Positions 196-26,890 of a DNA stretch of 64,000 nucleotides are shown here, piece by piece. Below the pieces are notes generated by a model that worked only from the letters and a program-made list of their open reading frames with translations, made no database searches and had not been told where the DNA came from. This DNA is from Amoebophrya sp. A120 (lineage: Eukaryota; Protista; Dinoflagellata). The position numbers and the translations under genes were made by a program. The stretch spans positions 9,834,625 to 9,898,624 of the forward strand of contig CAJINV010000004.1 in the NCBI GenBank assembly GCA_905178155.1, written 5' to 3'. How positions within the stretch are numbered: position 1 is the stretch's first letter; every line of letters begins with the position of its first letter.

Positions 196-2996
196 CTGGA
201 CGGCAGACAAAGAGTTGGACTACGCCATGGGCTTTTCCCTGCGGAAGCTTGACGAGACAGAGGAAGGGAACAACAGTATGACGCGGTTGGAAAACCGCCC
301 CTTCAAGCAGTTTTTGAATGTCAAGCAGGACGTGGTGAAGCGGGACCTGCAAGCGGAGATCGAACGGGAAAAGCGGCAACCACAGATGGCAATGTCCCGA
401 ACAAATATGTTGGTGAATAGTAAACAGCGGTCCTCGACGGCGCTGAGTTACGATGCGAATGGTGCCAGCACACAACAACCGTCGCAAAGCGCGCCAGTGA
501 CGCCGCGGAAAAATTCTAACGGTGGACAGGACCAAGAAATAAACCAGCAGCAAACGTCCACCTTCGGCGCTGAGTTTGGTGCAGCGAAGTCGTCTGCTTC
601 GGTGGTTCGTGACTTGTATAATTCGCGCCGTAGTTGTGTGACGCCGAAGGTGAATACCAGGAAATCCCGGGCGGACCTGTGGAAACCCTTCCTGCCTACA
701 TCTACTACTGCAGCTAGCACCGCAGGGAGTGGGACGATTACAGGGCTAACTCCCGCGGAGGGCGCGGCTGCAAAAAGATCGGCTTCCTACACAACTAGCA
801 CTGCTGTTGCTGCGACCTCGGTGGTGGAACATCAGAAGGATGGCTCGACACATATGCAAGCCACATCACCTCGTGCTGCTGCTGCTCTTGAAGATGCTGA
901 TTTATTAAAAGCCACTCCCCGTCGGCAGCTGTCGCTCCAAACTGTAGTCCAGAACCTGCACACTGCGGTTCGAAGCGCCTCGGCGCGCAAACGACCGTTG
1001 ACGACCAAGACGGTAAAACCGAAAAACCTTCCGAACTTCACCGTGAACGATCACTACAGGCAAGCGGGTCCGTTTTCGAGCAGTTATCGGGCGGCCTTCG
1101 GCGTGCCCCGGCTCGACGTGTTGGGGAGGGGGCAGGAGGGCGGGGGAGTAAAACAAGGCGCTATTTATTTTACCCCTCGCGGTGGTTTATCTTCGAGTTG
1201 TACGCCGGGCAATATAATTCACGACAATAATTCTACGATATCTGCCCGGGCAAGAAGAGCACTTCAGGAGGACCTGTTATGAACTGCAAAAGCATCGTAC
1301 TTGTATAAATGCATTACAAATTTTCTCAGCATGAAAAATAAAATTTGTAATGCGGATTTACCTTAAGACAAAGATTTGTAATGCTAGACTTGCATTTATA
1401 CGAGTACGATACTTTTGCACGGGATACCTGTTGCTGCAGGACGAAAAGGTCGTGGGTCCGCCGGCCGTATCCTGTGCAAAAGTATCGTACTCGTATGGAA
1501 ATCATGCATTACAAATCCCTTTGTTAAGGTAAATCAGCATTACAAATTTTATTTCTCATGCTGAGGAAATTTGTAATGCATTTATACGAGTACGATACTT
1601 TTGCAGTTCATAGGCCGGCCGCATTGGCGGAAGCAGGGACCTGCACCGAGGGTACTATAACAGTGAGCAACCGATGAACCTCTGCGATTGGGGCGTGCCG
1701 AAGCAGCTGCTGAACTCGCTTCTTGCTTCGAGCAGTGCAGCTGGTACGGACAAGGACAACAGCAACATCTCCCGGCCCGCCTCGGCAAGGAACTCTAATA
1801 CAGGAAAAAATATAATCGCCGGCACAGCAGCTGACGCAAACAACAATACCTCTGCGCTATCGACACCCCGCACGACGTCGCCCCGCACCCAGAACAAAGC
1901 CATTCTAAAAACCGCGAGTGAGCTCTTGGGCCAGGAAGCGAGGGCGGAGCAGAGACGGAAATTGTCCGCGCGGCAGAAGGCCGCCCGGGCGCTGCAGGGA
2001 TACAGCGATATTAATGGCGAGGAGGATGTCTCCGAAGTTGCACTGTGTAAAACATCAAATAAACGAGATAAGATCTTCCGTTCGCCGCCGAACTTCAAGG
2101 ACGAGGTCGCGGAAAACCTGTACAAGTTTCAGCATCACGAAACGCCCTCCGAGTCGCTGCACGAGTTTTATTCCGGGGTGCCCACCACCCCAACCTCCGC
2201 CCTGATAGTAAAACAGCGCGCCGAGTCGGCTCCGCCGGTAAATCTAGTTGAAAATAACGACGAGAAAACAAGATCTGATCTCGTTGGAGTAGTACCAGAG
2301 CGAGGCCATGGCCAACCACAGCAGTCCACAGAGAGGCTCGAAGATGAACAGAGAAAAAACGACATCAAAAGGCTGAAAGTCCTGCACAAGCGACACCACG
2401 CGCACCTGCACCAGGTCGGCGGGAATTCGTATCACTACATGCGGAAGGGCAAGAACAATAATTTGAACTTCAAGCACCCGCTGATCACGCCCTACGCGCC
2501 GACCAAGGAGCTGACCCCGCGGTGGGACCGCGACAACCAAAACCGGGTTTTTGTCCCGTACCGAAACGTCCTGCCTGCAGGGGAGAGACTGCCGTCGAGC
2601 CCGAAATTCAAGGACAAAACGGTGGTCGGCACGGCGCACGGCAAGCAAATCCTGGTTTCCTCCCAAATTCGGCGCGTTCCAGCGGAGCCGATCCGGACGC
2701 CGCGCACGGTGTTCACGCCGCGGCGGGAGGAGGACGTGGCGAAGGACGCGCAAAAAGTGGCGACGCGCGAGCGGCTGGTGCTGACGCGGTCCAGGTTCGT
2801 GCACACGCCTAGGATCAGCGACAAGCAGGAGGAGGAGCGAAAGGAATTTTTCGCGAAGCTGCTGAAGAACAAGGAGAGCGACCTGATCGCGCGGAAGAAG
2901 ACACGACGGGTGGCCCTGGCGCACTTGCCGGGGCTGTCTGGTGTCACGGAAACCAGCCACAAGGCGTACGCGGAAATGATCGCGAAAGAGAAGTAG
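196..2996 (+). CDS. Hypothetical low-complexity protein, 5'-partial; coding segments ~196-1277, 1432-1467, 1618-2996 (one DR copy retained per junction)
   Basis: ORFs 215..1282 and 1674..2996 join in frame (...QEDL-LLQDEKVVGPPA-GRIGGSRDLHRGYYNSEQPMNL...) once elements 1278-1426 and 1468-1612 plus one DR copy each are removed. No recognisable domain. Confidence 0.75.
1278..1426. mobile_element. Introner family A
   Basis: TIR TATnnnnTGCAAAAG(T/C)ATCGTAC; DR CCTGT/CCTGT. Confidence 0.92.
1468..1612. mobile_element. Introner family A, opposite orientation to 1278-1426
   Basis: DR GGCCG/GGCCG. Confidence 0.92.
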
Positions 2997-4171
2997 GAGG
3001 GATTGGGGTCGTTGCGCCAGTACTTTATTGGGTATCTTTCTCGTGCTCTCCTGACAGATAGTCCTCATAGTTCCTGTCATATTCTCGTCCATTATTTTAT
3101 GTTTATGTTAGTAGTGGACTGATTTTTTGCTTCGCAATTACACATTCCTGGGCATCACCGCTATTGAAAAATCACAGTGGTGGTAAACTAAGTAGTAGTC
3201 AGTTTGTTGACCGTTCTTTTCGAAGTGTATTGTACCCCACAAATTTGTTTCTGGCTAGACCAGCACTCTGGATAGCAATTTTCTGCTCTCGAGAGTGCTA
3301 CGGTGCCGTCAACATGTAAGAACCGTTTCAAGATTTATATTCTATGTTGAGGAGAAATATTTAGAATGAGTCACCCCTCATGTTGATTTTGAATTCCTTT
3401 TTTTAACAGCGCTTCAAGTTCAACTTGAGCTCCTGCATTTTTTTTTTTTAGTTTTTTGAGTTTGCGTCCCCTACACCTCGTAATTTGTTCCATCATGATG
3501 TTCCCGTAAGAAAACAGTAAGAAAGAGGGCCAGGAGCGCGTTTGTCCTGCCTCTTTCGGCACCGGCGGTGTCCGCCGCTTGATGACCACAAGCTACTAAA
3601 GAGTGCAGTTTTTTTTTCATTCGATAGATGACGTTTGCGAGTTATCCTCGTCGTGAATTCGGGGACAGACGCATCAAGCCGCGTTGTTGAAACTCGATCG
3701 TCCGGTGAAGATAAACCGGTGACAACAGGTAAGGTGTTCCGTCCTGAAGAACTTGTACTTCAGGAAAGGTGGCAGCAGTGAGTTGATGCCGAATCTAGTT
3801 TCGGAACTTGGTACCACGATCATGATTCAGGAGGAGATTCTTGAATGCATTTGCTTTTCGTAGTTCACCTGTATCTGTAAAGATCTGTAAAAATCAGTTG
3901 TTCTTTTTGCTTCGAGTTCAAAGTCAAACAGGACGATCCGCATTTACTAGTTTTTCTTCTTGGTTTGTGGCTCCTTTGTGCGTGTATAATTGATAGATCT
4001 GGATGAAAACCGGTAACCCGACTCGTCTCATGATCAAGATCGATGCACAAGGGCGGCTGGAAAACGAAATAAAGCGCTCAACCTTAACATTAATCAAAAG
4101 ATAATCCACGTGTATCCGTCCTCGAAGAAGTAGTTTGCATTTGGTTCTTGAAGAGGTCAGCACAAGAAAAA

Positions 4172-7100
4172 ATGTCGAACTCCGAGGCCGAGCGTTGGAA
4201 GATCGAGGCAAATGAGCACCTGAAGAAAAATGAGCTCACCGAGGCGATCCTATGCAGGGCAACAGTTTTATCTTAGTCTTTTATACAGACGTGCAGGTGC
4301 AGCAGGAGAAGAGCCCAGCAGGACAAACTTCTGTAGAGAGTTTGTTCGGGAGGGCAATGCGTGAAGATTTCATCAACCATTGCATTTCAGGAGCGAAAGC
4401 TTCGCATATATTTTTGAAATGAGGAATGAAATTGATATGACGGAATGAAATTGATATGACGAGGATGACACCACCTGAGATATTGAAAAGTCGTGCGAAG
4501 ACTCCTCACTGTTCCTGTTCAAGAAAACCGTTTGCGCAGGATACGTTCAAAAATACAACAAGGCCATCACGCTAGACAACCAGAACCCGGTCTATTACAG
4601 CAACCGTTCCGCCGCCTGGGTATTCACTGCAAAAGTATCGTAATCGTATAAATGCATTACAAATCTCCGCAGCATGAGAAATAAAATTTGTAATGCGGAT
4701 TTAACTTAAAGAAAAGATTTGTCATGCATGACTGCAACACGAGTACGATACTTTTGCACAGGATACTGGGCGGCACAGAGTAAGTTCGAAAACGCGCTGA
4801 ATGATGCGGAAAAATGCCTGCAGATCGACCCGAAGTTCATCAAGGGATTTTCACGCATATCCGCAGGAAATTTTACCGTACATCTCCGCGGAATCGAACC
4901 AGTATCAAGCGGCGACCATGCATGACAAAGCAAAGCTGCTTCCTGTTGCCTAGTTTAGTTTTTCTGCATGATCGCAGTTCCTTGCATGCTTATGTTTTCG
5001 GTTTTTGCAAATCAAAACCTGCGTTGCAAACATGTGACACGGACGCCGTTGACGTTGTACTGATAGCCGTACAATGAATTTATTACGGTAAATGTGTGTT
5101 GCATAACGCAAAGGGCTCGCACTGTTTAAGCTTGGAAAAGTAAAGGAGGCGACGGAAGCCTACCGGGCGGGACTCATCTATGCATTGCAAAAGCATCATG
5201 TTCATGATCGTACTAGTATAATATTGAGACACATGACAAATTTTTCAAGAAGGAAAGCTTGAATTTGTGATGCAGATTGAGGTAGAAAATTAGATCTGCC
5301 ATGTTGCAAGACTGGTCGTTAACATTTTAATTAAGTATACGAGTGCGATTACTTCTTTGCTTTTGCACAGGATATCAGCTTGGACCCAACCAATGTCGCG
5401 CTACAGCAATCCATGGCGGCAATCACGAGGTCACAGAAGGGCAGTAGCGGGGACGGAATCCAGGGCTACTTGGCAAGCGTGGGACAGAAGCTGATGAACT
5501 CAGGCGGTATCATGATTTTTGGATGTCAGCTACTTCCACAGCTTCCATTCTGACCCTGAGCAAGTAGAGGGAGGCGATGACAGACAAATAACTTCCAGTT
5601 CCTTCTTTACCGTGTTGGTGCTTATCAGCTGCTTCTTTATCATCATTGTAGTTTCGCATCCTGTTCATGGCGCGCATTTTCAATCATGAAACAAACCGCA
5701 TAAAAACAAGAAGTATGTGACTATTTACGGCCGCTTCACCACAATGTCAGGTCTCGGCAAAGTGGTTATGTATGCAGTGGTTCTTTTTGGCTACTGGCTC
5801 TACATGCGTTTTACCCGGTCCGGCAAGACCGACGGGGACAACGCGCTGCCCGAGAAGCCGAAAGACCCCACCGCGCTCCAGCATGGCATGGTGTCCCTCG
5901 CACGAGACAAGGCCGTCCACATCGCGAAGCGTTCCGCGATCGTCCCAGCAGTTGTTTCTCCGCCTGCTTCATCTTCCCCCGGAGCTGCGCACCAGCACGC
6001 AAGCGAAGCGGAAGGCGAGGACACACAAGTGACCACGGACAGCAAGGCCGCCACGTCGGTGGTGCTGTTTTTCCACGCAACCGGCTTGTCTGGAGAGGAA
6101 CACGCCCACGTGGTCGCGAAATTCGAGAAAAGCTATCCTGTGCAGAAGCATCGTACTCGTATAAATGCATTACAAATTCCCTCAGCATGAGCAATAAGAT
6201 TTGTCCTGCGGATTTACCTTAGGAAGAAAATTTGTAATGCATGACTGCAATTACTACGCTACGAGTACGATACTTTTGCACAGGATAAAAGCAACGTGCT
6301 CTTGATAGACCTTCCCTGTCACGGGCGCAGCACGTGCTGGTTGTTATGGAAAAGAAAAACCGTGTTACGTGTAGGAGGTGTCTTGTGGAGGTGACCACAG
6401 CATGACAAATTCGCTCTGTATGACTCCTCTTCTTCAGAAAAAGCCTCTCATGTGCAGCTTCTACGAGTACGACGCCAAAGCGCATATGACATAAGAGGGC
6501 TTCCTGACTGGCCAGCATAACAAGTGTTGCATGCTTCGCATGTTTATACAAAGTTACACGACCACTATGATCTACAGTTTTTTTCTTGCATAGCTGCCTT
6601 CGGGCGACGACTGGGAAGAGCTCGGAAAAAAAATCGTCGGCGCAGATGCAACCTTGTTTCCCGAGGGCGTGCCAAAGACGCTGGTATTATGTTTTTCTTT
6701 TTTTACAAATTTTGTGGAGATGTACTCATCAATTTGGTTTGATTTTTGCTCACGCTAGCGGTCTTCTCACTGAACAATATTTATGATATCGGTTGCCGCT
6801 GTCGCTCGTGCTACCTAGTAGCGCTCCACCTAATAAGTACTACGCCGACAAGAACTTGGTGTCTTAGAACATCAGTATCAATGCTGCTCTACCAGGTCTT
6901 GTCCGGCTATTCGCCTTTCCTCACGCGTGGCATGTTTGACGCTTTCATGCCTGACTACGTGGTTTGGACAGGGCCAAACGAACTCTTTTCCAACAAGGAC
7001 ATCAACACCGTCGAGGACCTATCCTGTGCAAAAGTCTCGTACTCGTATAATTGCAGTCATGCATTACAAATCTTTCTATTACGGTCAATCCGCATTACAA

Positions 7101-8708
7101 GTTTTATTTCTCATGCTGAGGAAATTTGTAATGCATTTATACGTCGAGTGCGATACTTTTGCAGTTCATAGGACCTGAAATCCAAACTTCTCAGCGACGA
7201 GTCGACCTCAAAGAAGCACAATGAAGTAGGTCGCGAAAAAGCCTTCAACAAACTGCCAATAGGAATATTGCGCGATGCTACAATGCACATGGCGCATGGT
7301 AAGTTTTGTCTTCGAGGAAGCGATGTTTTTTTTTTTGGGACCATGTCGTGTGTTGGGTGACGAATGCTACTGAATACGCATGCTCATAGTCTCGTTGCGC
7401 ATTCACTTAGTACCTGGATTTAGAAGTAGCACGAGCTGCAAGTCAAGTTATTTACGTTAGGTCGAACAGGGGACGGGTTGCGAGTCCCTGTGCGCATGCA
7501 GCTTGTATATCGAAGTGCGCTACATCATGCCAAAAATAAATCTTATCACAGACAAGCGTCCACAATACACACTAGAGCGCAACGTGACCGAGCTGATCCT
7601 TCAGGAGGTCATCGTGTCTCCGACCCTTGTGTTGTCAAGTGAAAAACCGGAGTTAGACAAAGAGAAATATTAAACCGTAATCCATTCTTCTTCACCATAG
7701 GGGCGAGAGGGATCTAAGTACCTCGTGGTCGTCGTGTGGCTTGTGTCATCTTGCTGCACTAGTAGAGGACTAGCACAACATCGAGGATCTTTTTCTTCTT
7801 TGTTGCACTTTTCTTCTACTTGCGCTTCCCTGCCTATGAACTAGGTCAGGCTCAAGTATGTAGGTGATGGTGAAGGACACCGGTATTAAAAGTTCTTTGT
7901 CCCTTTTCATACACGAAGTTCACCAGTCTTAACAAGAAGATCGAGGCGAAGCAGCACCCGTGGGAACTCGTAAAATCTGAAAAATGGTTGAGCACCGTGC
8001 AGTACCCACTGAAAGAAAAAAAAGGGCCGTACTCGTCGTACTTCTTGCATTGTTGCATGACAGATTTCTCTTTCCGCACACTTTTCGTGCGGTTGCGGAG
8101 AAGGAAAGATATTATTTTGTATATGCAAGAGCATGTTGAGCAACTCCAAGTTTGCACGACAAGTATAATGCGCCAAGGTACTTTTTCGTTGCATATGCCA
8201 CAGTGGCTCGAGGAACAGGCGGATGCGGCGGGACAGCATACTATGGAGGTGTCGGCCTTGAAATCGACAAAGTCGAACAAATGATTTGTGACGCACAAGA
8301 AAATCAAAATGTTGACCACAATAAATTTCTAAGCAGCGCATGAAAAATTATCTCGATGCCTTGCTCTGTTCGGTATCGGTGCAATAAACGGGGCTGCTCG
8401 TGGCACATGCTCATCTTTGGCACCACTCGCATTCTTCCTCCTAATTCGGCTTGTTGTTGGCACCTGGCATCACTTGCCTGCTGTCCAATACAAGCATTCT
8501 GTGGGTGCAGCCAAGCACGCATGTCAGATCATTTTAATTTATGAACAAATTGGGCGATTTCATCGGGCCTGACGCTTCCATACAAGAAACTCAGGAGGAA
8601 GCAGACCACGCACCAGCAGCGGAGCCCGCAACAGGATCAATGCCTGACGAGGACCTCCAAGCTGATGACGGCAGTACGAAGGCCGGGGGCGGTGCGGACG
8701 AGTTTTAG
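4172..8708 (+). CDS. Multi-exon gene: N-terminal STI1/SGT-like TPR domain, transmembrane helix, alpha/beta-hydrolase-like domain, C-terminus ...GGGADEF*
   Basis: Spliced translation: MSNSEAERWKIEANEHLKKNELTEA..KYNKAITLDNQNPVYYSNRSAAWAAQSKFENALNDAEKCLQIDPKFIKGFSRKGLALFKLGKVKEATEAYRAGL (3 TPRs); TM segment VVMYAVVLFGYWLY; VVLFFHATG...NVLLIDLPCHGRS; TLVLSGYSPF; HPWELV..WL. Canonical GT-AG intron at 5507-5750. Exons between 7230 and 7930 are uncertain. Confidence 0.7.
4251..4543. mobile_element. Degenerate introner-like non-canonical intron
   Basis: TATGCA...GCAGGATA ends with an eroded DR; must be removed to join the TPR1 helices. Confidence 0.55.
4621..4765. mobile_element. Introner family A
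   Basis: DR CTGGG/CTGGG. Confidence 0.92.
4858..5105. mobile_element. Introner family F (diverged)
   Basis: TATCCGCAGGAAATTTTACCGTA...TACGGTAAATGTGTGTTGCATA; DR ACGCA/ACGCA. Confidence 0.85.
5179..5374. mobile_element. Introner family A (diverged)
   Basis: DR TCATC/TCAGC. Confidence 0.85.
6134..6287. mobile_element. Introner family A
   Basis: DR AAAGC/AAAGC; removal gives FEKS-NVLLIDLPCHGRS. Confidence 0.92.
6345..6592. mobile_element. Degenerate introner, family E-like
   Basis: Right end CAGTTTTTTTCTTGCATA matches the end of 14712-14925; DR GTTGT/GCTGC; frame restored. Confidence 0.6.
7020..7170. mobile_element. Introner family A
   Basis: DR GGACC/GGACC. Confidence 0.92.
8003..8195. mobile_element. 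Degenerate introner, family A-like
   Basis: TAC...GTACTCGT...GTACTTTTTCGTTGCATA; DR TGCAG/TGCCA. Confidence 0.55.
8242..8582. mobile_element. Introner family D (diverged)
   Basis: TATGGAGGTGTCGG...GAAATCGACAAAGT / CCTGACGCTTCCATA; DR CATAC/CAAGA. Confidence 0.75.
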
Positions 8709-9897
8709 TAAGGCCGTAAGCAAGCAGGAGTCGTCCCGCATGAGAAATAGTAAATGGCTATCTGATGCGCTGCATTTTTCTTCTTCCACCAGAAACAGAA
8801 AAATTGCCATACAGTTTTTGCTAGACCGAAACAAAGGTCTCATGATCCATAGAAGGCGTAGGTGAATCTGGATGAAACGAGGCTCATGAAATTGTTCCCA
8901 TAGAAGTAGTACGGATGTTTATTTTCAAAATTCCAAGAAGAGGAAGGTCAAGGTTCTCAGATCCTGTCGTCTATTCGCAAAAAGCGCCTTCGGTTTTTTC
9001 CAGTAACTTGTTGAGATTTTCAGCACGAATGAAATGTTGATCAGTTTAAGTATATGAACCACAACGCGATCATGATCACTGAAATAAATGCATGAAATTA
9101 AGCGCAACCAGTGTCTATCTTCTCACGACGAAGAACAAGAAGGACCTGTCTATTAGGATCAAATCATGCGTCCCCCGTCATACTCAGATAGTAATGAAAT
9201 GGAATAAAGCACGCAAAATTATATATTAGCAGCTCAGAATCAGAATGCAAATCAAATGCAATGTCGAGATCATTTTCGGAACGAGCCGGCTGATTATCTT
9301 GTGACAGAAGTTTTCAGCTGAATCATATGAAAGAACTTCAATTTGGCCTCTTTTGTCTCGTCGACTCTTTCACTTTCCCTTTTTTCCCTGAATTGCGGAA
9401 ATTAAATAAACAAACACCAATCTCCCACAGTGTGTACAACCAAGTTGCGCTGCTTCATCGGATTCCTAAAACTTACTTTTTTTACTTGCCTTCAAAAAAT
9501 TTACTTTACTACACATATTTGCACCAACTTCGATTGACGAGATCTATCTACGCTTATCTTGTAAGACTCTTTCGAAGAATTGGCGGGGTGAACGTAATGA
9601 AGGTAAACGCAGTGAACACGTTGTACGACAAAAAGATTACATTATAGTATTTTCATCCAGTTTTGGTAAAGCGACAACCGTTCTCTCTGATTTTTTCTAC
9701 AAAAGAAGCCTGCAAGTCTTGCACCAGCACGATCAAGTAGCATTACATTTACACTCAAGTATTCAAGTATTCATATTCTAAACGTAAAGAGGAGAACAGA
9801 TAGAAAAGTCTGATGTTGTTTGGAAAGTAGTGCTATATCGAATTCAAAAACAATAACAAATTTTTACTTCTCTCAATTTTTCAAAGTAGTGAACAAG

Positions 9898-12800
9898 ATG
9901 CGGAGTGCGGTCAACGAGAAATCGCTTTACCCAGGTGGGAGGGCCGCGTTGTCGACACCGCTTCGTTTTTTCGTGTGGTGCGGCCTCCAGTTTATTTGCC
10001 TGCAGCAGGTGGCGACCCCCGTGGTGGCTTTGGTTTTGGACGACGATATACCAATCACCCGCTCCCTACAAACCAGCCTCCAAGTTTTGCAAAGGAAATT
10101 GCAAATGTTTCGAGATGCGATGGTGGCGGTGCGAGGCCGCGACGGCGTCCAAATCAATGAGAAGGACCTGGACTCAGTCACGGACATCCGCTGGCTCCCT
10201 CCGGAGCACAAAGCGTTCTGGTATTCGCGCTATGCCGAGTTGAAGGCCGAATTCTGCCAAGTGCGGAGTACCAGAGCGACGTCGACATCAGGTGTTTTTC
10301 CTGCAGCAGGAGTAGGAGCTTCGTCGTCAATTTATCGCAAACAGACCCTTCCCCTGGACGCAAGCGTGCATATGTGCGAGTGGCAGCGGAGGGGGCAAAG
10401 GACTTGGGGTGACGGCCTCTCCGGGGAGGACCAACTAACTAATAGCCCTGACTCTGGCGACGAGCTCACTTTTAGTATCAAAGATGAAGAAGACCACAAA
10501 AGCAAAACCAATACAACTCCGCGGGCCGCTTGTGCACCTGATTTGTGCCGCGCGCTGGCAGAGTCCTGGAAACTGTGTCACGCGTTTCGAAGAAACGTCT
10601 ACCCTTACGTCGGAGCGAGCCTGTATGGATGTGTCAGAGTTGAAATCGACAAAGTTGAAATAATTTGTCATGCATAAAATGGATGCCAGTTGGAACCCAG
10701 TTTCCAAGTGGCGCATGACAAATTTCGGTGGTCCCTAAATCCAGTTTGTCATGCTGTTTAGGCAAAGAAGAGCGACTTTCTCATGCTACTTTAGCAGCTC
10801 GAGCTGTAACCCCAAGCAGGCTTACAATCGGCCTCACTTGCCTGCTCTGCCATACACGTGGCTCGGGTCATGCATTTTATGCATCACAAACTATTTCAAC
10901 TTTGACGATTTCAGTCCTGACGCTTCCATAGCCTGCTGCCCAACAAGGGGCACGAAAAGATGGTGTTCACGGCGGCGCGGCGAAGTCAAGTATGCAATGC
11001 AAAAGTATGGTACTAGTATGAATTGCATGACAAATTTTTCCTAGAAGAAAAATGAAATGTGTCATGAAGATTCAGGTAAAGAAAGCAGATCTGTAATGCT
11101 AGACTCGCACGAGACTCGAATAGCTTCGCCCGCTGGGTGTGACGTCGCAAACTTGCGCTAGAAGGAACATTTTTCAGAAAGTTCACCTCCCGCTGCGGGA
11201 CGCGCACGTTTTGCGTATCACCTGGGAACAACGCTGTTGCGTCTCGCGCCGCATCCCCCCGCGGCCTAGTGGATGCCTTTTCAAAGCATGTCGAGCCGGA
11301 AACGCGGCTAGAGACGCCTTCGCAGTGCGTTGCTGGTTGGAAATCTAGCAAGCGACGCCGTCTCAGTGCATTTCTAGCCGGAAACCCACCTAGCGACGCC
11401 GCCTCAGGGCGTTTCTAGCTAGAAAGCCAGCTAGCGACGCCGCCCCGGTGTGTGTCCAGCAGGGAATCCAGCTAGCAATGCCGTCTCAGCACCTTTCTAG
11501 CTGAAAGGATGGAAATACAGCCGGAAAGGCAGCGGCAGCGTGTTTCCGGCTAGAGATCCAGGTGGAAAGGCATCGCCAGCGCGTTCCCAGAACGAAATCC
11601 AGCGGGAGAGGCATCGCCAAAGCGCCCCCGGCTGGAAGAAATTCAGCCGGCCGCGTCTTTGCGGAGTATTTCTAGCGTGAAATGGAGCCGGGGACGCCTT
11701 TTCAGAGCATTCCTAGCGGGAAACCCAGACGGAGGCGCGTTTTTTTCTAGCCGGGAGGAAATCCAGCAGGGAGGCAGTGCATTACTTAAAGAGGCATCCG
11801 CAAGCAACGCGCCTCCAGCTGGAAATCCTTCGAGGGCGCCGCTTCGAAGAGTATCCAGCTGAAGACGCCGCGGCAATGGAAATCCAGCTTGCTGGAAACG
11901 CCTTTTCGAGGGAAATCCAGACGGAAACGCATCGAGAAGGCTTTTTCAGCGCTTTCCCGCCCGACCTTTTCAAACAAAGTGGCTGCAGCTGGATTTCTAG
12001 TAGAAGACGGCTTTCGATTTCTAGCTTTGATTCCAGTTGTGGGGAACATTTTGAAAAGGCATCCGCGGCGCATTGTTAGCTGGGATTCCAGGTCAAGGCG
12101 CCTCAAGGTGTTGCCAGGTGGATAGATTTGCGGGCGGAGATGCCTCGGGGCATTTCCAGGCGTCAAGAATCGCAAGGCAGCCGATTTCTCTTTGATTTTC
12201 CGGGGTTTCTTCCCGCGTTAGCAAAACTCTGCTGGCTACCCGGGGAAAGGTTTGCCTAGAAGGATACTGGGTAGGTATTGGGAAGCTATCGGGAAGGGGT
12301 GGCAGAGCTGAAGCTCTTCTCGGGCTGTTGTGCTTAGCGCGGCTCTTCAGGCTACCCGGGGCAAGGATCTTCTAGTAGGGTCGCGGGAGGGTGTTCATTG
12401 GGATAGTGGAAATGTATTGGGGATTTGTTTTTTTTATTTTTTCCCGAGTTGCTGTGTTTAGCACAGCTATTCTGCCTACCCGGGGCATGGGTTTTCTAGT
12501 AGAATGCTGGGAAGGTATTGATGGAGGCGTCCATCTGCGCCATCGTTGCACGCCTTCCAGGTGCAGCGTCCGTGGCTGCGGTTGCCGCCTTCCGTCTCCG
12601 TCGGCTGCTCGCGATGTCTCCGTGCGCGCGATCAGCTGAAGCTTTTTTTCCTTAGGGATTTCAGTAAGAAAGTGACACGCGATCGCGCGGATCCGAGTGA
12701 CCCCCTACGACACCCCCCCCGCCCTTTCGAGCGATATGATGACACTGCGCCCCAATCCGTATGTTGAATAGTTTTTGTTTTTAAGATGAGGACTTAGATG

Positions 12801-15800
12801 CGGATGCGGGGGGCCCTCGCCCCCCCCGCCCTTTCGATATGATGATACTGCGCCCCAATCTGTATGAAAAATTTTTAGATCTAAGATGATAGCTGTAAGA
12901 TCTAAGATCATGAGTTTTGACATTGCGCCCTGGTGCAGATCTGTTTCTGTATGAATGGTTTTAAGATCTAAGATGATAAGAGCTAAGATTATGACTTTTG
13001 AGATGAAGACTCACATGCGGGGGGCCCTCGCCCCCCCCCCCGCGCCCCCCCCGCCCCTTCGATGTGATGTTATTGGGCCCCAATCTGTATGAGTAGTTTT
13101 TATTTTTGAGATGAAGACTTACATGCGGGGGGCCCTCGCCCCCCCCCGCGCCCCCCCCGCCCCTTCGATGTGATGTTATTGGGCCCCAATCTGTATGAGT
13201 AGTTTTTATTTTTGAGATGAAGACTTACATGCGGGGGGCCCTCGCCCCCCCCCGCGCCCCCCCCGCCCTTTCGATGTGATGACATTGCGCCCCAATCTGT
13301 ATGAAAAATTTTTAGTTCTAAGATTACAACTGTAAGATTTAAGATCATGACTTTAAGATTGCAACTTGATCTAAGATCTGCACTATCAATTTAAGATTTG
13401 AGATTTGCGATAAGATTTGATAATAAGATTGGAGATTCGAATAAGATTTGAGACTGGGCCAAGATTTCAGATTCAGACTCGAATAAGATTGAGACTGGGC
13501 TAAGATTCTGAAGTTGAGTTATTCAATTTGAGTTATCCAATTTGAATTATTCAATTTGAATTATTCAAGAATTTGAATTATTCGATTTGAATTATTCAAG
13601 AAATTGAATTATTCGTGAGTCTTGCGATGAAATTGTAGATATGACTATCAATTTATACGAGTGCGATACTTCTTTTGCAGAGCATATCAAGCTTGCGTCT
13701 ACCATTCTCTTGACCAAGTTCCGCCGGAACAGCAGATTCCGTTCGGGGAGTTCCAGCAAAAGCTCCGCGGCGGGGAAAAAGAGGCAGCTCCGGAGGGAGC
13801 CACAGCGCGACCACCAAATGGAGGGTCGGCGAGTGCAGTTAGAGTCTCGGATGCAGCTGGCGAACAGAAGACGAGCAAACAGAAACATGCACGTGTCGAG
13901 CCACAGCGATGTGGTACGGTTCAAGGTGGTAATAAACGAGAAGAACGCAAGAAAGAACCGCCTGCTGGTGTCGCGCCAAAATCTCCATCTACTCGCGGCA
14001 GAAGTTCATCTTCCCGACGTGCTGCCTCACCTTGCCGGTCCGCCTTGTGTCCGGCGTCAGCTTTGCGGCCGGCATCTTCCAGAAGATCGCGTGCGCAGTC
14101 ACCTTCGCGGGGACGGTCCGCATCAACATCTACATCTTCACGGGGGACGAGGAGAGCTGCTTCGACTTTTACTACCTCCAAGACCTTCCGTGCTGACCCA
14201 ACTGCCGGAACGTCCAGTGCCGAACCGGGTTTGCTTGCAAATCGTGCGGCGAGCAGTGGTGATGTTGTGCCTGCGCCAGGAGCAAGCGGAACTGCCGATG
14301 CTGGCACGGCCGAGCAGATTGATGGCAATCTTCCGAGCAGTTGTGAAGGCGCGCATCTTCACGCGCCTTCAAAATCAAAAAGCGAAGCAAAGAGGCTATA
14401 CAGGATAGAGAGAAAAGAGCAACAAAAAGCACAAAAAGCAGAACAAAAGAGAGCTGAGGAAGAGAGGCAAAAGGATGAACAGGCGAGGAAAGAGGCAGAA
14501 CGCACATCAGAAGCGGCGAAGCGTGCAAACCTGGAAGCCGCGGAGAAAGAAGCGCTGTTGGAAGAGGACAAAAAGCTTCTGGAGGAGTGGAAGAGCCGCG
14601 CACCGGAGGAGTGCCGGGCACTATTTCAGGCCACCAAAGGCAGCACGAAGTGGACGCCGAATGTCGTGCTGGTCGAGATTGCGATGGACTTGCTCTTTCG
14701 ACGCGGTTCCGTATACAAGAAAAAAATTTTGTAAGTGTATGTGTAACTGTATACTTTTTTGCAGAAATAGCATCACAAATTTGTTTTGCATGACAGAAAA
14801 CCTGTCATGCGTAGCTAGTACGCGAAAACAGAAACACGTATTAAAATAGCCTCTGATGCATATCCGGCATGGTATTGCAACATCTCCAAGACAATGTTAC
14901 ACTTACACAGTTTTTTTCTTGCATATTCCGCCATGTATGTCGAGTATGAGGAATTCGCGGCCGAGCTCTATCAGCTTGATGAGCATTGGCACGCCGAAGA
15001 GAAACAAGAGACCGATAAATGGCGGCAGTGGGCTGAGGGAAGGGGCGTGGACATGGAACACAAAAAACGCAGAAAGGCTATGAGGGAGCTGTATTTGAAA
15101 GAACTAAAGCAAAGACGCGACAACAAAGTCAACTTTTTGCGGGAAATGAGGGCGCGGTGGGCCCGCATGGAAGCTGCCGGGCTCGCCCTGTTGCTGCGGT
15201 CCGGCCTGCCCTCGACGGAGTCTGTTGATGAGGGCGGTCGTCCGTTTGTTCCGGAACGGGTGAAGAACGGCTTCAACCGGATTAAGGTGCTCCATAAGCT
15301 CGCATCGGATGCAAAAGAGCGGTACGCGGGCAGTAAGACTCCACGGCAGATACTTGAAAAACCTGTTTGGAAGCAGCCGCAGCAGCCGGGGGTCCAATGG
15401 CAATTTGCCAAAGTAATAGACCCGGATCTCACCGACGACGGTGTTCGTGCAGCACAGAGCGATGCAGCAGCAGGAAAGTCATTGTTCCCAGAAGACCTGA
15501 AGAAACCTAAGGTGTGGCCCATTCGCGAACTTATGTTTGAGCAGGTTACGAAGCAAAAGAAGAAGACGCGGGCAGAATTGCGAGACAAACTTATGATGGA
15601 GGAAAGAACAGATGTTGACCAACTCAGCGACTGGGCGTTGATGCGCGGGCTACTCAGCCTGGTAGTGTACATCTTTCGCGGGGTGCAGTCCTTGCGACCA
15701 TTCAGAGAATACATTCAAGTGATCGATAGTCTGCTCGACCAGGTATTTATTGTTTCCGAGGACGGAGATGAAGATGACGGACAACGAGGGCCAGGACCAC

Positions 15801-17163: not shown

Positions 17164-17299
17164 ATGATGCGTTATTTATATTTTAGTGAGTAGCAGGGCC
17201 TGAAGTTCGGGGCTTCTGCTTAAAGAAAAAGGCGTCTGCAGTAAAATATCTGATTCTTTGTTATTTTAAAGCAGTCGCATACTAGTATGCGCGCTAGAG

Positions 17300-18262
17300 G
17301 AAGAGGAAGCCTAACCTCCCCCGAGGGGAAATGCAACAACGATAGGAACACACACGACACAGCCACGATTTTATCGACTTTTTGATCGGACAAGTTTTCC
17401 TAAACCAACTTTGACTGAAAAGTAGAGGTGAAGCGCAAAGCGTATTTGTAAAAAAGTAGGAACGCCAGCTTCGCCTCTAAGTCTGCGCCCATTTCCAGTT
17501 AGGGACACACGTAGTCGCCTCGTTCTTCATTTTCAATAAACTCTCCACAAGACGTGCTTGCACAACTAATCTCAGTTCGCTATGCTACAGTGTTTCGCTT
17601 GCGACAACTACTCTCAGTTCGCTGCACAACTAATCTCAGTTCGCTGCGAGTTTTTATACTTGCACTTGCTCTACGTCTACTTCTACTAGTTTGTGCACGA
17701 GCTACAACTATGTATAGGTAGTACTTAGCAACGCAAACTTGCCATGAACAAACACTATACCTGGAGCAGGGCTTGCCATGAACAAACACTATATGGATCA
17801 TTTAGTATCTATATTACAAAATTTATTTTATCGCACACGTCCGATGCAAGTATTTGTCGGAGCTTGGATGTTTTCAAAAGAAAGCAACACATACACACAT
17901 TTTGATTTTGTATAATCTTTAAGTATTTGTGTTGTACAAGTGGGAGTTAGCGTTTGGGTTTGGCTTTGGTCTCAAGAAGAAGAAGATGAAGAAAGTCTGA
18001 CGGCGCCTAAAATAAGTATTGTGTGCGCTTGTGGAAGGAGCACAACCATAACCCTCGTAGGGAGAGGGACTACACAAATGACGATAGCACACATAGGAGC
18101 CACGATTGTATATATCGACTTGTTTATTTGATCGGACTACAACTACAAGCTTTGGTTTATTTCTTAAACCGATTTATTTTTCGGCTGAAGCGTAGAGGGG
18201 CAGGCAGCGCAAAGCGTATTGATTCGTAAAAAGTAGCAACGCCAGCTTCGCCTGTAGGTCCG
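17300..18262. repeat. Diverged intergenic direct repeat (~17300-17490 and ~18040-18262) enclosing short tandem duplications
   Basis: Shared blocks GCCACGATT, ATCGACTT, TTGATCGGAC, AGCGCAAAGCGTATT and AACGCCAGCTTCGCCT. Confidence 0.75.
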
Positions 18263-20010
18263 TCTGCACCAGTCACTTCGAAGTATACAGGTTTTTTTTT
18301 CCCCTCCACAACCCGAACCCTTTCATCCGAACTATTTTTTGTCAGATTGTGAAGATGATATCGGTTTTATTTCTATCGTTGTTTTATTTTCTACGCAATG
18401 GTTTTGGTTTTTGATGTCGAAGAGTCTTTTCTTATGTTCTTGAAGCATATAGTTTAAGTCCGATGAGCATGAGGATGGGTTTTTTGCTAACAAGAATTAT
18501 CATGTAGCCCTGTTCTAGCTCTACAACTGGTACAGACGTGCCGCTCGGCTAGAGCATAGTACTCCGTTGCACAACATCTGTAGTGCGGCGTGTGCTGGAA
18601 GAGTTTGAAGAGCGTTGAGTAGCTTGTTGTCCCTCAAAAATTTGATCACAATGTATGATGAACGGCATTTCTTTTACAACAAGCTACAGACTGCAACAGC
18701 TATCCGTCAGCAGTACAGCAACTCCACATCATGCGCCGGATACGATGAAAGCCCATCATTCACATTGGCTACCTAGAACAAAGTACTCAAGATGCATGGA
18801 GATCGCATATAATGCCGCGCCCTCCCATAGGCCGGCCAAGATGCCCCATACCATAGGGGAATCTTGCAGAACTTGTACCAGTAGTTTTGTATAGCAAGAA
18901 CCTTGATGTTCAACAAGGTCCGGAAAAATAAACGACATCCTCAACAGCAGGCGGGGAATGAACACAACGACGACGTGGCCGGCAGGTGTTCTCATTCATG
19001 GATCCTCAAATAAGGTGCAGCATCGTGGCGCACAAGAACAGATCCCCGCCAACGTGCCTTGTTTGCTGGATGCTCTTCTAAGGGAGTAGTTGATTCTGGG
19101 GTAAGCAAACATAACTGCGGTAGGCCGCGTTTGGTGTGTCCTCTTTTGAAAGCGTTCCGTACGAAGATGTTGATTTCGGCCGTACGAAGATGTTGAAGGG
19201 CACAGCCACTTACGGAAGGTGCCGGGTCGTCGTGATCATCGTGGTTCTGAAAATTCTAATACGTCGGTCGAAACAAGTTTGAATGAGAATGTCATCGGCA
19301 ACCTTGCATTGCTGTAACTGGTTTCATGATAGTTTGGTTCGTCATCGCGCTGTTTCTATTGATGGTTTTACAACCTCATCGGCTTCGCATCTACTACTAC
19401 TTCTTCTTCTCCAGCTGGGGATATTAGCGCTACACACGACGTTGACCAGCACACATACCGTCAACTTTAAAGTTCGAAAAGTCGCTGTCGCACGACATCA
19501 AGGGTATTATCCAGATTGGGTGCTCTCGTTGCGCTCGCAGAGATTCTAGATTTGAGGTTCGTCATCAAGGGCACTAGGTGTTGTCGTAGTAAGTTGTCGT
19601 GTCCTCCTTGTAGCCCCGCCCAATTTCTTTTCAAAACACAGACCAGAGGCCGTCTAGCGCGATAATCTTCCTTAGAAGTAACTACACGGTTTTTTTTAAT
19701 TAAGCAAATTTGAAGACGATCAAATAGTAATATCTAAGGGCGAGTATTAAGCTCTGTGGTCTTCCTGTTCTTCCTGTTGTTGCCCATCCTCGTGGAAGAC
19801 CCGCGTCACGACGAATCGTAGGCATGACTACAACAAACATACCGCCTCGGAGCAGCAGCAATTCTAATAGTTCGATTGTTACGTCCTCCACAAGTCGTGT
19901 CCTCGATATTGAGCACCACTTCAACGCGGCCGAGGAAGACGGAGACAGATTCGAAGGAGGCTCTAGCCGGGCGAGGAAGGCCTCCGGATTTCTACGAGGA
20001 CTACCAGCCG

Positions 20011-23000
20011 ATGATGAACGAGCCATCTTTAATAACGGTTAACCGTCAGCAGGACGACGACGACGACCAGCCTGCTTCGTTCTGTGCGACCAGCCGAAGT
20101 AGCGCCGGCGGCGCGTGGAGCAGTTGCAGTGCAAGCGAGGAGCGGCCGTCGAATGCGTCCGAATACTTCTACGTGGGAGGTGGCAGTCCTCCAGGAGATT
20201 GCCTGCTCAGTTGTAGTACTGAGAAAAGCAGCCCGAGCCCGAGCCCCGGTGAAGCAGAAGGTCATGCCCTGCTGGGAGATCCTGATGTCTCCAGTCCGGG
20301 ACTGTCAGCATACGTAGTCACGGGCGATGGGGTGCTGGAGTTCTCTCCGGTGGCGTCATCTAGATCCAGCAGTGAACTACACGATGTCGTGTATCCGCAC
20401 CTCGAGAACGTGGCAGGCGTTCGGCAGGGGAAAGGAGAGACTTTGCCGTTGAAAAGTTCCACCGAGATAAAAAAGACGGTGAACGGGAAAGAAAATGTGG
20501 ATACGGAGGAGCCTGTGTGTGAAGAACGAGGCCCACGGCTGGAAGGAGATGAAGAGCGGGTACAAGAGCACTCGCAGTCCTCTGCATCTCCGGAGCCGAC
20601 TCATCCTTTTCTGTTCATGGGCTCATCTGGGGAGCAGGCGGCTGACCCAAAACAGGCAGCAGCGGTCGTGGGCGCAGATGATACTAAGCAGGGAAGGAAA
20701 AAAGGAATTGCTGTTGCTGCCGCTACGAACAAGAAGGGCGCTGCCTCTTCTAAGGGAGGTAACAAGAGTACTACTACCAAAACCAAAGGCAAGGCAGCAC
20801 CACCCCCAGTTCTTCCGGAACAAGCTAAAGCAGCTCCCATTCTTGCGCAGCCGGCGGCAGCGGAGGTTGCGGTGAAAACTGAGCCTACTGGTGCAAAAGA
20901 ACACCCTGAAGTTGTGCCCGGCTCCAAGGCAAGCACGGTCGGAGGTGTAGAAGAAGTCGACGCGCAAACAGCTACTAAAGCGTCGCCCACCGCCGGGTCT
21001 GCTTCGGCTTCCGCTTCTGGTGCCATCAAAGCAGGAGCGTCTGCTGTAACCTCAAGTGCGTCATCTGTCCTTGCCCCTGGTGGTGCGCCAGTCAAGAGCT
21101 ACAGAAGTGGGACGACTTCTACTGTCGTGAGCAATAAATCGAAGCCACCGTCACTGCCCGCCTCTCCCCGAGGAGAACCACCAGCTGCGGCGAAAAAGCC
21201 CAAGCCGCCGTCACTGCCCTCCTCGCCCCGGGAGGGAGGTACAGCTACAGGTACTGCTGCTGTCGCAAAAAAGACTAAGCCGCCCTCTGTGCCGTCTTCT
21301 CCCCGGCCCGGAGGAGGTACAACAGGAGCAAGTCGTGCAAAAGCAAACGCCACACAGCAGCAGCAGCAGCAATCTAAGTCTTTCGGTACAGTGAAATCCG
21401 CCGCGCGTGCCGGGACGACAAATTTCTCGGCAGTGGAACACGATGCGAAGAGTTACAAAGATAAGAATCAGGAACTACAAGACCCACGACCGGCATTGAC
21501 ACGAAAGTCCGCGATCAGCACTCGCAGAGGAACTACAACATCCAATGGAACACGGCCAAGCAGGCGGTCAACTACTAGCTTTTTGCCGGAAGCACCGAAA
21601 GCCTTTTCTTTGAACGCCCAATCAACTGGACGGCAGCCTGGTGACGAAGAAGATGAACGCGGTGTGCCTTCCATGGCCTATTGGCTCGGGGGAATCTTTG
21701 GGTCGGCTTCATCTGGAAATGATAATGAAACAGGACGACCAGCAGCAGGAACTACTGGTGCCGCTGCTGAGACGAGGAGCGTCGCAACAACTGCCCCGAT
21801 GAATAAAGGCTCTCGTCGTGGTGAGAAGCAAAATCAAGATGAACCTGCTTCATCTGTCGTAGAAGGCGGAGCCAGCACTTCATCTGGCTTCTTTCTCACC
21901 AACTTCAGTCTTCCTGTGACCGCACCCTGGATGTTGAGCAACCCTGGGTCGTCGGAGGCTGATGTGGGGGCGTCAACGGCCGTCGTGGCTCGTCCCGCAT
22001 CTACTTCCACGGCAGAAGCGAGTCCGAATATAACGCAGCCGAAAATTGAATCGCCAACGCCACTCTATAAGAACGACGCCGCTCTAGTATTTTCTTCGGC
22101 GGATGTTGCTGGAGCTGGAGACACTTCTAGTAACCTCGCTACCACCTCCGAGACTATACAAGCTGCAGGGACCACTACTCAGCAGGATGTTGTCGGCCAC
22201 CTGTCGAGAATGATGTCGTTCCTCGGTGAGCATGCTGATCGCGTGTCGAAGCATGTTCTTGGTGTCGGGATGATCACGCCAGATGAAGTTGCTGCTGCTA
22301 CTAGTACAACTAGTAAAATAAACCGTGTCGGTGCTAATATGAACAGCGGTGATCAAGAGGTTTCCATGTTGTCTGGTGGAGGTGGAGTTGAACCACGAGT
22401 AGATGAGATAAATCACGGCGATTTTTATGCCAATGGCAATGTTGCGAATAATTATCCGAATGACCATGACGGCAAAGCCAAAGACGAGCATTGGACCACA
22501 TCAGTGAAGAAATTTTTCACCGCACCGCCGTCTTTTTTGAAGCAGGACCCAGCGAGTTATCAGTACGATCAGTCGTATCAGCACGACTACTTCTACCCCG
22601 GACGAGCAGCTGCACCAGTCCCACCACCACCCGCGCCTGTTACATCAACTTCTTCTCCTTCTTCTTCCAAGCCCCGTCGAACTAGCCCCGAAGAAAAGCA
22701 AGCGAAAAAGGAGAAAAAACAGGAGAATAAACGGAAAGCAAAACTGGCGAGAAAAGAGGCAGAGCAGGACCGGATAAAAGCGGTTAAAGAAACCTACGAG
22801 CAGCAGAAGGAGCTTTTGCAAGCGGCGATCAAGCAAAGAAGGGACGAACTAGAACAACGACTGAAAAAACAGATCCAGCAGAAGGAAAAAACGGAAAGAA
22901 CTGCGAAAAACGGCATGGACGCTGCATTGCTTTTATGCAATGTTTACAAACGTCTCGTACACGACGTACAAGACGCGTCACAGATTTCGCCAACTTACAA

Positions 23001-26000: not shown

Positions 26001-26890
26001 GCCCTGTTCGGGTTCACTTTAGCCTGGGAAAAATTTCTACCATGTGCAAAAGTATCGTACTCGTACTAATTGCAAATATGCATGACAAATGTTTTTCTCA
26101 AGGTAAAACAGCATTACAAATTGCATTTGTCTTGCTGAGCTAATTTGCCATGCAATTTATACTAGTACGATGCTTTTGCAATTCATATTTTCCGAAGGTA
26201 GTTGTGAAAACCGTGAACCAGGCAGAGACGTCCCGAGCCAAGAAAAATGGGGTGGTCGCGGGGGATTTTCTGGTAAACTTTTCCGGGGAGAAGATCAGCA
26301 ACGTGAAGCTGACTCTGGAGAAATACAGAAACGCGAAAAGTCCGGAAGAAGCGATCGTGCAAAAGGTGCAGAGGGCATTGGAACGATTGAAAAGATCGGG
26401 AAATTACGGCAAGGAAAATCTGACCGGATTTGTGTTTCTAAGGAAAAAGTACGCGAGTCAGTACCTGCAACTTCGGGTAAAAGTACCAAACGAAGTTGTA
26501 GGCGAAGATGAGTCAACAGCTGCTGGAAGTAGAACAGCGGAAAGAAGTCTCGGGTTTCAAGTGGTGTCCTACAAGTCAAACTCTCTCGAGATGGAGATTT
26601 TGCAGGTCGGCAAAGTGCTGGACCGCGATGCTGGTAAGCCAGACTCCTTTGCGGTGAGCAACAAGCTGCAGCAAAAAGACGTTTTGGTTTGTTTTAACGA
26701 AAAATCGCTGCTGAGCGGGGCCGTGGACAAAGATGCGTTCTGGGAACTGGTTTCGGACGAGAGCAAAAATCCTTCCGAAGCGATGAACACAGCACCGAAC
26801 AACGAGATTTTGCTCCGACGATGTTTGCCAGAAGGCTGGCCGCAGGACCAAATTGATGCGGAAACGGAGCGGCTAAGGGTGCAGATGTGA
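20011..26890 (+). CDS. Large protein with low-complexity N-terminus, coiled coil and a duplicated C-terminal module of PDZ-like domains; start codon uncertain (frame open from 19876)
   Basis: ORFs 19876, 23128, 24531 and 26150 join across 4 elements. Two copies of LAG..KLPL.KWGFAGWYQSSID...FPKV.V..V.....A.KNG.V.GDFLV.FSGEKI...LGF.V.SYKSNSLEMEILQVGK; the A.K.G+..GD.L+..+G pattern is PDZ-like. Confidence 0.7.
22934..23108. mobile_element. Introner family F (diverged, reverse orientation)
   Basis: GTACGGGAATAAATTTG near the right end; DR GCTTT/CCTGT; joins DAALL-LSRNHLDE. Confidence 0.75.
24439..24591. mobile_element. Introner family A
   Basis: DR TTTTG/TCTTG. Confidence 0.9.
25653..25965. mobile_element. 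Introner family D
   Basis: DR ACGAC/ACGAC. Confidence 0.92.
26038..26187. mobile_element. Introner family A (TAC start)
   Basis: DR ATTTC/TTTTC. Confidence 0.88.

Follow-up and report, generated by a model that had tools for sequence, protein, structure and literature searches.

Introners of the dinoflagellate Amoebophrya sp. A120 are excised from RNA in either orientation relative to the host gene, as documented here for a 64,000-nucleotide (nt) stretch of contig CAJINV010000004.1 (positions 9,834,625 to 9,898,624, forward strand; hereafter the window). Two copies of introner family A, at 1278-1426 and 1468-1612, face in opposite directions within one gene of the window, and both are missing from the corresponding RNA contig. 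Sites with mismatched target duplications point to a single splice register, N-TAT...ATA-NNNN, in which one cut falls 1 nt before the 5' arm of the terminal inverted repeat (TIR) and the other 4 nt after the 3' arm. It is probable, in our judgment, that the arms (TAT-N7-AAA, with TTT-N7-ATA at the far end) serve as position markers that set the removal of the element together with one copy of its duplication, and we favor catalysis by the spliceosome core. The elements were already known; what appears to be new is their orientation-free, fixed-register excision and an asymmetry at intron position -25.

More than 60% of A120 introns are noncanonical, and the mechanism of their splicing is an open question in print. 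The introners have been described as inverted repeats starting with TAT, 7 nt and AAA, with direct repeats of 3-5 nt and noncanonical ends (Farhat et al. 2021, PMC7789003). According to the Figure 3 legend of that report, the position of the splice sites with respect to the hairpin varies, and the border is unknown.

When the window was compared with itself and searched for TA[TC]...[AG]TA ends next to repeats, 49 elements emerged: 48 are complete and one is truncated at the window start, and a 5-nt direct repeat lies directly outside the ends of each. Arm frequencies confirm an inverted repeat that opens with TAT, seven looser bases and AAA, and the elements are repeated and removed from RNA with noncanonical ends. 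The public Amoebophrya sp. A120 proteins P0001, P0121 and P0123 are 100% identical to window exons; P0001 matches an exon of an ABC transporter gene at 40083-46160, and two further exons match P0121 and P0123. The window elements are the published introner elements of Amoebophrya A120. With TIRs, target duplications, no coding capacity and many copies, most of them 100-350 nt long, they also have the features of MITEs (miniature inverted-repeat transposable elements), nonautonomous TIR DNA transposons. A search of Rfam for structured RNA families such as group I or II introns and small nuclear RNAs returned no match in the window at the gathering score, and viral contigs gave no matches.

Removal in both orientations

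The two focal copies lie 41 nt apart in an open reading frame (ORF) on the + strand, within a host gene at 203-2996 that forms an 829-codon ORF after excision and whose first exon has no Pfam match. The first copy (1278-1426, sense) has a TIR of about 29 nt with a mismatch at arm positions 4-7 and is flanked by CCTGT at 1273-1277 and 1427-1431. The second (1468-1612, antisense) is flanked by GGCCG at 1463-1467 and 1613-1617. A first-pass annotation had proposed that their interiors are reverse complements and that the same holds for pairs in three other groups of elements, and the comparisons bear this out. With 30 nt trimmed from each element end, the focal interiors scored 121 as reverse complements versus 34 on the same strand and at most 26 in 500 shuffles, and global identity was 87% versus 64%. 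In family B, 28582-28843 (+) and 57546-57808 (-) scored 217 versus 31, and 55202-55457 (+) and 55538-55790 (-), which are 80 nt apart, gave a weaker 59 versus 23 at 68% identity. The family C pair, 1-195 (+, cut by the window start) and 43476-43790 (-), scored 230 versus 45. The family F pair was also weaker, at 58 versus 17 and 62% identity; its members are 22934-23108 (-), whose end we corrected to 23108, and 29319-29468 (+), with the former also opposite to a copy at 63317. Four of these five pairs were put through 500 shuffles, and all exceeded them.

Both focal copies are absent from a single contig of run X1 that covers 196-3650. Its joints at 1271>1426 and 1462>1613 remove 154 nt and 150 nt, respectively, lengths that equal the two elements with 5 nt added to each. 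A 36-nt exon that separates the copies (1431-1466) is kept, and no exon-skipping joint is present among the joints listed. Contigs of X1, X2 and X4 are presumed to be RNA, and they show the presence of a spliced form, not its efficiency.

The two stretches compared with RNA, one of them 25990-45989, hold 33 elements; X1 is without coverage of the genes at 4100-10950. Nineteen of the 33 are removed (11 sense, 5 antisense and 3 unassigned), four at listed joints and 15 by exact length arithmetic on parts of 1528, 912 and 202 nt. A 7346-nt contig spans an ankyrin gene, and its 1528-nt middle equals the 3681 genomic nt minus ten elements with 5 nt each. The 202-nt part fits two GT-AG introns plus one element. 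In the ABC transporter gene, the 912-nt part fits removal of four elements (sense B, sense A, antisense B and antisense C), and joints 45378>45647 (antisense B) and 45740>45900 (sense A) are each present in X1, X2 and X4. Among the family members named above, 28582 and 29319 are removed in RNA, as is 43476 by length arithmetic; 57546 is removed as element plus 5 nt in P0123, 22934 is removed in P0121, and 55202 and 55538 are placed by sequence comparison and restoration of the ORF. Of the remaining 14 elements, three (1-195, 44838 and 45162) are consistent with removal but lack a listed joint, ten are uncovered and one, an antisense copy, shows unspliced RNA.

The predicted genes tell the same story. 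All host genes lie on the + strand: excising each of the 49 elements with 5 nt gives + strand ORFs of 250-2083 codons, and the three public proteins agree with the resulting gene models, 16 of their 17 elements being removed in this way. The claim that introners are tolerated either way around in same-strand genes is confirmed, with five antisense copies in total, one of them in the focal pair, removed from RNA.

The joined forms could in principle be copied from insertion-free DNA, whether another allele, another strain or a product of DNA excision, instead of spliced RNA. X1, X2 and X4 are presumed to be RNA, and X5 could hold empty-site joints beyond those listed (941 more). Nevertheless, we consider this explanation very improbable. 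The contigs that lack the elements also lack the GT-AG introns, have no differing letters over the pieces listed and do not continue beyond genes; the intergenic bins at 37996-39329, for example, are empty in X1 and X2 and covered by X5. Furthermore, X5 contigs continue from the flank into the element at single-copy depth.

A count of orientation per family had been suggested as a check. Within the window, the sense-to-antisense ratio is 10:8 for family A and 9:5 for family B. The count was extended with a 22-nt arm motif, which found 141 loci (L001-L141), all in a second assembly, JACKZZ01, in a search that took in 47 of 64 parts. The JACKZZ01 elements are 75-94% identical to those of the window; no exons overlap, so the relation of JACKZZ01 to A120 is not fixed. 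Merging reduced the loci to 131 (295 kb), and an arm profile identified 343 elements in them; on the window itself the profile recovered 42 of 49 elements and missed family D. Host strand was called by a codon model that was correct in 270 of 273 calls at 300 test sites.

The JACKZZ01 counts were 70 sense and 65 antisense for family A (50 of 185 uncalled), 32 and 23 for family B (14 of 69 uncalled) and 22:19 for other named families, with 39 copies lacking a family, and the result was stable over four thresholds. Pooled with the window, family A stands at 80:73 (80/153, 52% sense; confidence interval [CI] 44-60%) and family B at 41:28 (41/69; CI 47-71%). Family D, found by homology, gave 5:3 with one doubtful match and two copies without ends excluded. 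Both orientations occur in 17 of the 26 loci that have at least two family A copies. Across the window and JACKZZ01, though not genome-wide, no orientation bias is therefore seen, and these elements make introns in both orientations. Nearest-neighbor family A copies share host orientation slightly more often than chance (0.58 vs. 0.50, p=0.046), possibly due to the search motif.

One splice register and symmetric ends

A perfect duplication lets the junction slide over six places, and mismatched duplications fix it. Among 306 oriented copies (258 from the loci and 48 from the window), the duplication is perfect in 223, the finder having tolerated up to two mismatches. Three mismatched sites in the ABC transporter gene bracket the register. 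At an antisense B copy (45380-45642, - strand; ACAGC/GCAAC; joint 45378>45647) and a sense A copy (45742-45895, + strand; GAACC/GAAGC; joint 45740>45900), the mRNA retains positions 1-4 of the upstream duplication. At a sense B copy (41846-42110, + strand; CGACC/CGACA), X1 and X2 both have a listed piece that stops at 41840; position 5 in the mRNA is thus the base of the downstream copy, which sets the upper bound. These mismatches imply that the intron is N-TAT...ATA-NNNN. P0001 has Ile541 at the 41846 site, and a 4+1 split alone reproduces the P0001 junction residues; it also yields P0121 (1054/1054) and P0123 (829/829). The public gene models were likely built on RNA of the same strain and so are not independent evidence. 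A search for a public TPR protein that bears on the register at 5179 and 4251 gave no match. Use of the downstream duplication copy would create a stop at both 28425 and 28582, which makes the upstream copy exonic.

Complementary motifs thus stand at fixed offsets from both cuts at the three bracketing sites. By extension from other copies, positions 1-4 of the CCTGT at 1273-1277 would be exonic and position 5 the first intron base, and positions 1-4 of the CCTGT at 1427-1431 would be the last intron bases. An alternative general register, the element plus 2 nt, is ruled out at 1468 by the joint and at 28425 by length arithmetic, both of which offer G/TAT...ATA/G (slashes mark cuts).

The duplication itself supplies no canonical signal. 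Its composition is that of ordinary coding sequence: among the 306 copies, G is at +1 in 87, AG is at the end in 28 and GT-AG is present in 3. The idea that the elements co-opt GT or AG from their duplications was rejected on these grounds: GT-AG occurs in 3/306 at the mapped register and GY-AG in only 20/306 in any register. The 306 copies as a group have neither the GT/GC...AG ends of U2 spliceosomal introns nor, in the manner of Aureococcus and Polarella, canonical sites that they carry or co-opt from the duplication. With no canonical signal taken from the duplication, the signals must lie in the symmetric ends.

The first arm base is T in 306/306 5' arms, and TAC occurs in eight 5' arms versus one 3' arm. 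The five canonical introns of the window start with GTATG, GTACT, GTAAG, GTATT and GTATA, and the N-UAU/UAC at the element's 5' end resembles the GUAU/GUAC donors of A120 with the first base alone freed. A canonical-looking acceptor, TTTTGCAG, lies in the 3' arm of the second focal copy (1599-1606, + strand) and is unused, the cut probably falling 10 nt further on. TTTGCAG is found within the last 20 nt of 33/73 antisense A copies and is bypassed at 1468. The interior motifs GCATNACA/TGTNATGC have a rough mirror layout in family A and none in family B. A preference for palindromic targets was also considered and rejected (51 and 53 of 223 vs. 23% and 25% in controls).

At 37135-37502, in a 3' untranslated region, a weak TAT...ATA stretch has a perfect TTTTG repeat; an RNA contig reads through it, and it is not removed. 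A 5-nt repeat with end triplets is therefore insufficient.

The initial proposal had placed the signal, as a probability, in the TIR stem and in bidirectional motifs, and had held that no directional signal could be required unless it was symmetric. The symmetric ends are upheld, and both orientations are excised and equally common. A paired stem as opposed to arm sequence, and a role for GCATNACA/TGTNATGC, are conjectural. Moreover, the ends should be called symmetric but not direction-blind, because the two cuts are at unequal distances outside the arms (1 nt and 4 nt) and one change falls mainly on the host 3' side (see below).

A mechanism in five steps would accommodate these results. Insertion would occur in random orientation through a DDE/integrase-type transposase that makes a 5-nt staggered cut; the duplication and the 50:50 ratio are observed, and the enzyme is postulated. 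Both arms share the same core, so either orientation presents the same ends, 5' N-UAU-N7-AAA and 3' UUU-N7-AUA-NNNN, as can be read from the sequence. With one cut 1 nt ahead of the 5' arm and the other 4 nt beyond the 3' arm, regardless of the bases duplicated, the original coding sequence would then be restored; net removal is observed, and the register seen at the three bracketing sites is assumed elsewhere. The arms would pair or be bound once the 3' arm has been made and before a neighbor competes, as folding predictions suggest. Last, the U2/U5/U6 core of the spliceosome might catalyze the reaction, with the arm pair substituting for U1 and the AG check, a step for which the chances seem evenly balanced. 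Farhat et al. (PMC7789003) report that A120 retains U2, U4, U5 and U6 along with 83 of 89 spliceosomal proteins; they did not detect U1 and found no cognate transposase in A120. An integrase-like TIR family has been described (PMC12130899).

The same arm-set register could instead be read by a dedicated nonspliceosomal machine, either a structure-guided endonuclease with a ligase or a circle-forming route like that of Euglena, although we find this rather unlikely. It would explain why GT or AG is not required, why TTTGCAG goes unused at 1468 while lying near the end of so many antisense A copies, and why U1 was not detected. Euglena introns follow the same logic (5'-N3CDG- and -CH'GN5-6/R), and for these the authors favor nonspliceosomal machinery (PMC12501133). 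Against a dedicated machine, the 5' end equals the canonical donors of the window except for the first base. Canonical and noncanonical introns also leave the same transcripts, and one public model reads an element as GT-AG. A direction-specific adenine at -25, a typical branch distance, is likewise at odds with such a machine.

The folding predictions are favorable when each copy is considered on its own. In each of the four combinations of family (A or B) and orientation, 90-100% of copies are predicted to pair their own arms, and the stem of the first focal element is predicted with a probability of 0.96 when the transcript ends at 1466 and of 0 when it ends at 1490. Because the 36-nt exon is kept, either commitment is cotranscriptional or the arms are read as sequence. 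The second of these options, that proteins read the arms linearly (a 5' motif, a 3' motif and nearest-neighbor scanning) and that the hairpin is a by-product of the transposon, is possible but doubtful. It can be combined with steps 1-3 and 5 of the mechanism.

Several observations weigh against the arm-pair mechanism, and some of them speak for linear reading. At equilibrium, the focal copies are predicted to pair with each other (-220.5 kcal/mol, z -25), and the first element's own stem would drop to 0, yet the two are spliced separately despite this far more stable cross-element hairpin. The arms show no covariation, and outside one site G.U is no commoner than A.C (77 vs. 71 in family A, 39 vs. 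43 in family B). Small insertions are present in 19/152 5' arms and 31/152 3' arms of family A. On the other hand, nearly all copies have predicted own-arm stems, which can form first, and the covariation and wobble tests are weak because young copies leave little time for covariation. Further points concern the register and the ends: all three bracketing sites behind the register lie in one gene, its upper bound comes from no antisense copy, and differences between 5' and 3' roles at arm positions 1-3 are not significant in whole-column tests (p 0.09-0.45).

The last group of adverse observations concerns antisense family A copies, to which both signs of imperfect removal belong. At 26038, an RNA contig (depth 8) starts 33 nt inside the copy and represents unspliced RNA. 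At 45162, a public model reads the copy as a GT-AG intron, G/TAT...ATA/G, so that P0001 at 45161-45313 has an extra Leu in the ABC motif (SALLD); the A25 orthologue has SALD. For this site, the X1 lengths (4028+54+30) suggest the exact element-plus-5 form with a second path merging there. The G/TAT...ATA/G reading is possible in 27/306 copies and may lie behind the published figure of "15% of canonical introns with IR/DR". The outermost pairs of antisense A copies are also predicted to be weaker (0.49 vs. 0.63, p=0.009).

Such data could mean that one orientation is spliced worse and that the even count reflects recent insertions not yet purged. This is improbable. Five antisense copies are removed, copies differ by about 10% from the family majority and so are not brand new, and the pooled sense fraction of family A is close to one-half.

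A directional site in family A

The arms of family A differ in one respect according to their position in the host gene. At arm position 21, which is intron position -25 in the 3' arm, A is changed to G in 52/152 arms on the host 3' side versus 9/152 on the 5' side. The adenine is at 1406 (+ strand) in the first focal copy, and the equivalent site in the second is 1592. The change follows the host 3' side whichever way the copy faces: among 145 family A copies shorter than 185 nt, it is in the left arm only in 1 sense and 20 antisense copies and in the right arm only in 25 sense and 5 antisense copies, and copies without it number 47:43 (p 2e-5 and 3e-4 for the association with orientation). 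The element search is blind to host strand and thus cannot create this asymmetry. Family B has no such site.

Inheritance of the variant as a subfamily was rejected, since no column is linked to it and, on trees, its 34 and 25 carriers need 30 and 24 changes, respectively, counts made without a shuffled-label control. The absence of a linked column and the many changes on the trees indicate that the change recurs after insertion. Nor are 3' arms more altered in general (insertions 31 vs. 19, p=0.12; other substitutions 114 vs. 108). Two subfamilies have skewed orientations (29:15 and 6:14), which we attribute to an interaction of the search motif with the -25 variant.

The asymmetry may come from selection for G at -25, from selection against C at +22 or from an RNA-linked mutational process. 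Position -25 is at a typical branch-point distance, and an adenine so often lost would be an odd branch point. We tentatively entertain a broader idea, that A120 has a second splicing code, N/UAU-N7-AAA ... UUU-N7-AUA-NNNN/, where the parts of U1 and the AG check are taken by transposon ends. Any TAT-ended element would then be an instant, scarless intron at any exonic site and in either direction, and the recurrent, nearly always independent A-to-G change at -25 would mark either the branch nucleotide or RNA-templated writing back into the genome.

Known systems and other features of the window

The published account of A120 introners applies the word "orientation" to genes only in its main and supplementary text (PMC7789003), whereas here we find no orientation bias, one register and a directional site at -25. 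Gozashti et al. (2025, PMC12130899) likewise describe A120 families of TIR DNA elements, about 150, 250 and 305 nt long, whose sites are mostly noncanonical (supplement file 8, rows 1-22 of 58). In those rows, automated calls vary by family (co-opt 5', carry 5' or co-opt both, with duplications of 2-5 nt), in contrast to the one register found here, and the method text demands 5' aligned with 5'. When our fixed-register junctions are slid to the most canonical-looking place, they give GT 34%, AT 25%, AG 36% and AC 18%. This is close to the GT 26-28, AT 14-20, AG 24-30 and AC 18-19% of three large A120 families in the rows just cited, an agreement that is compatible with a fixed register but not proof of it.

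Introners of Polarella glacialis and Aureococcus anophagefferens are also TIR elements with target duplications that form introns in either orientation (Roy et al., bioRxiv 10.1101/2020.10.14.339549, which cites Huff et al. 2016 for Aureococcus). In the Polarella examples given, however, GT/GC/GA donors and AG-type acceptors are carried or come from the duplication, which supplies nothing in A120, and the passage reports a bias toward one orientation in all classes it describes, whereas none is seen in A120. Nonconventional introns of Euglena resemble those of A120 in having complementary end motifs at fixed distances, a 3' spacer longer than the 5' spacer, no GT-AG and a suspected MITE origin (PMC12501133; PMC11282704). 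They differ in using a CAG/CTG motif, spacers of 3 and 5-6 nt and a purine at the exon start, as opposed to TAT/ATA and spacers of 1 and 4 nt. The euglenid N3-CDG/CH'G-N5-6 motif and a preference for a purine at the exon start are absent from A120, where G+A is 47% at exon +1. The A120 introners are not members of the Euglena class and belong to an unrelated lineage. The literature searched contained no report of unbiased two-way excision or of a fixed register for A120 elements, although subscription papers, the panels of Figures S19-S23 and further supplement rows may hold one.

Under an orientation-free, fixed-register rule, the signal narrows to a pair of short arms, and the cut positions become exact. 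If this rule is true, the published scatter of splice dinucleotides is junction ambiguity within a random 5-nt duplication, and the tolerance of tens of thousands of exonic insertions is explained. It would also be a convergent parallel to the Euglena code, and the -25 site is a first candidate for a directional step.

Several other features of the elements deserve mention. All 49 listed elements are in coding exons, the 12 long ORFs making up 33 of the 50 kb that remain after excision, and none was seen in intergenic stretches of the window such as 17200-19800 and 37500-39600. Insertion phase is uneven (97/63/48 in 208 copies of L001-L141), with 47% phase-0 introns at the mapped register. Four elements in addition to the 49 (4251-4543, 6345-6592, 8003-8195 and 8242-8582) are older, with 2-3 mismatches in the duplication; excising the one at 6345 restores a DLPCHGRS stretch, which we take to be alpha/beta-hydrolase-like.

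Two elements are greatly swollen. A family A element at 10991-13686 has grown to 2.7 kb, with tandem repeats of 41, 106 and 14 nt inside, and a family B element at 48993-50127 to 1.1 kb. Both have intact ends and perfect duplications, and their excision restores the ORF, so the ends may be able to act at a distance. A further family B copy (58281-58620) has an internal duplication of about 77 nt. Short insertions at arm positions 8-28, often tandem duplications of 2-6 nt, occur in 50/304 A arms and 29/138 B arms. Finally, elements of different families at 24439 and 25653 lie within a few codons of the equivalent place in the two halves of a duplicated PDZ-like domain.

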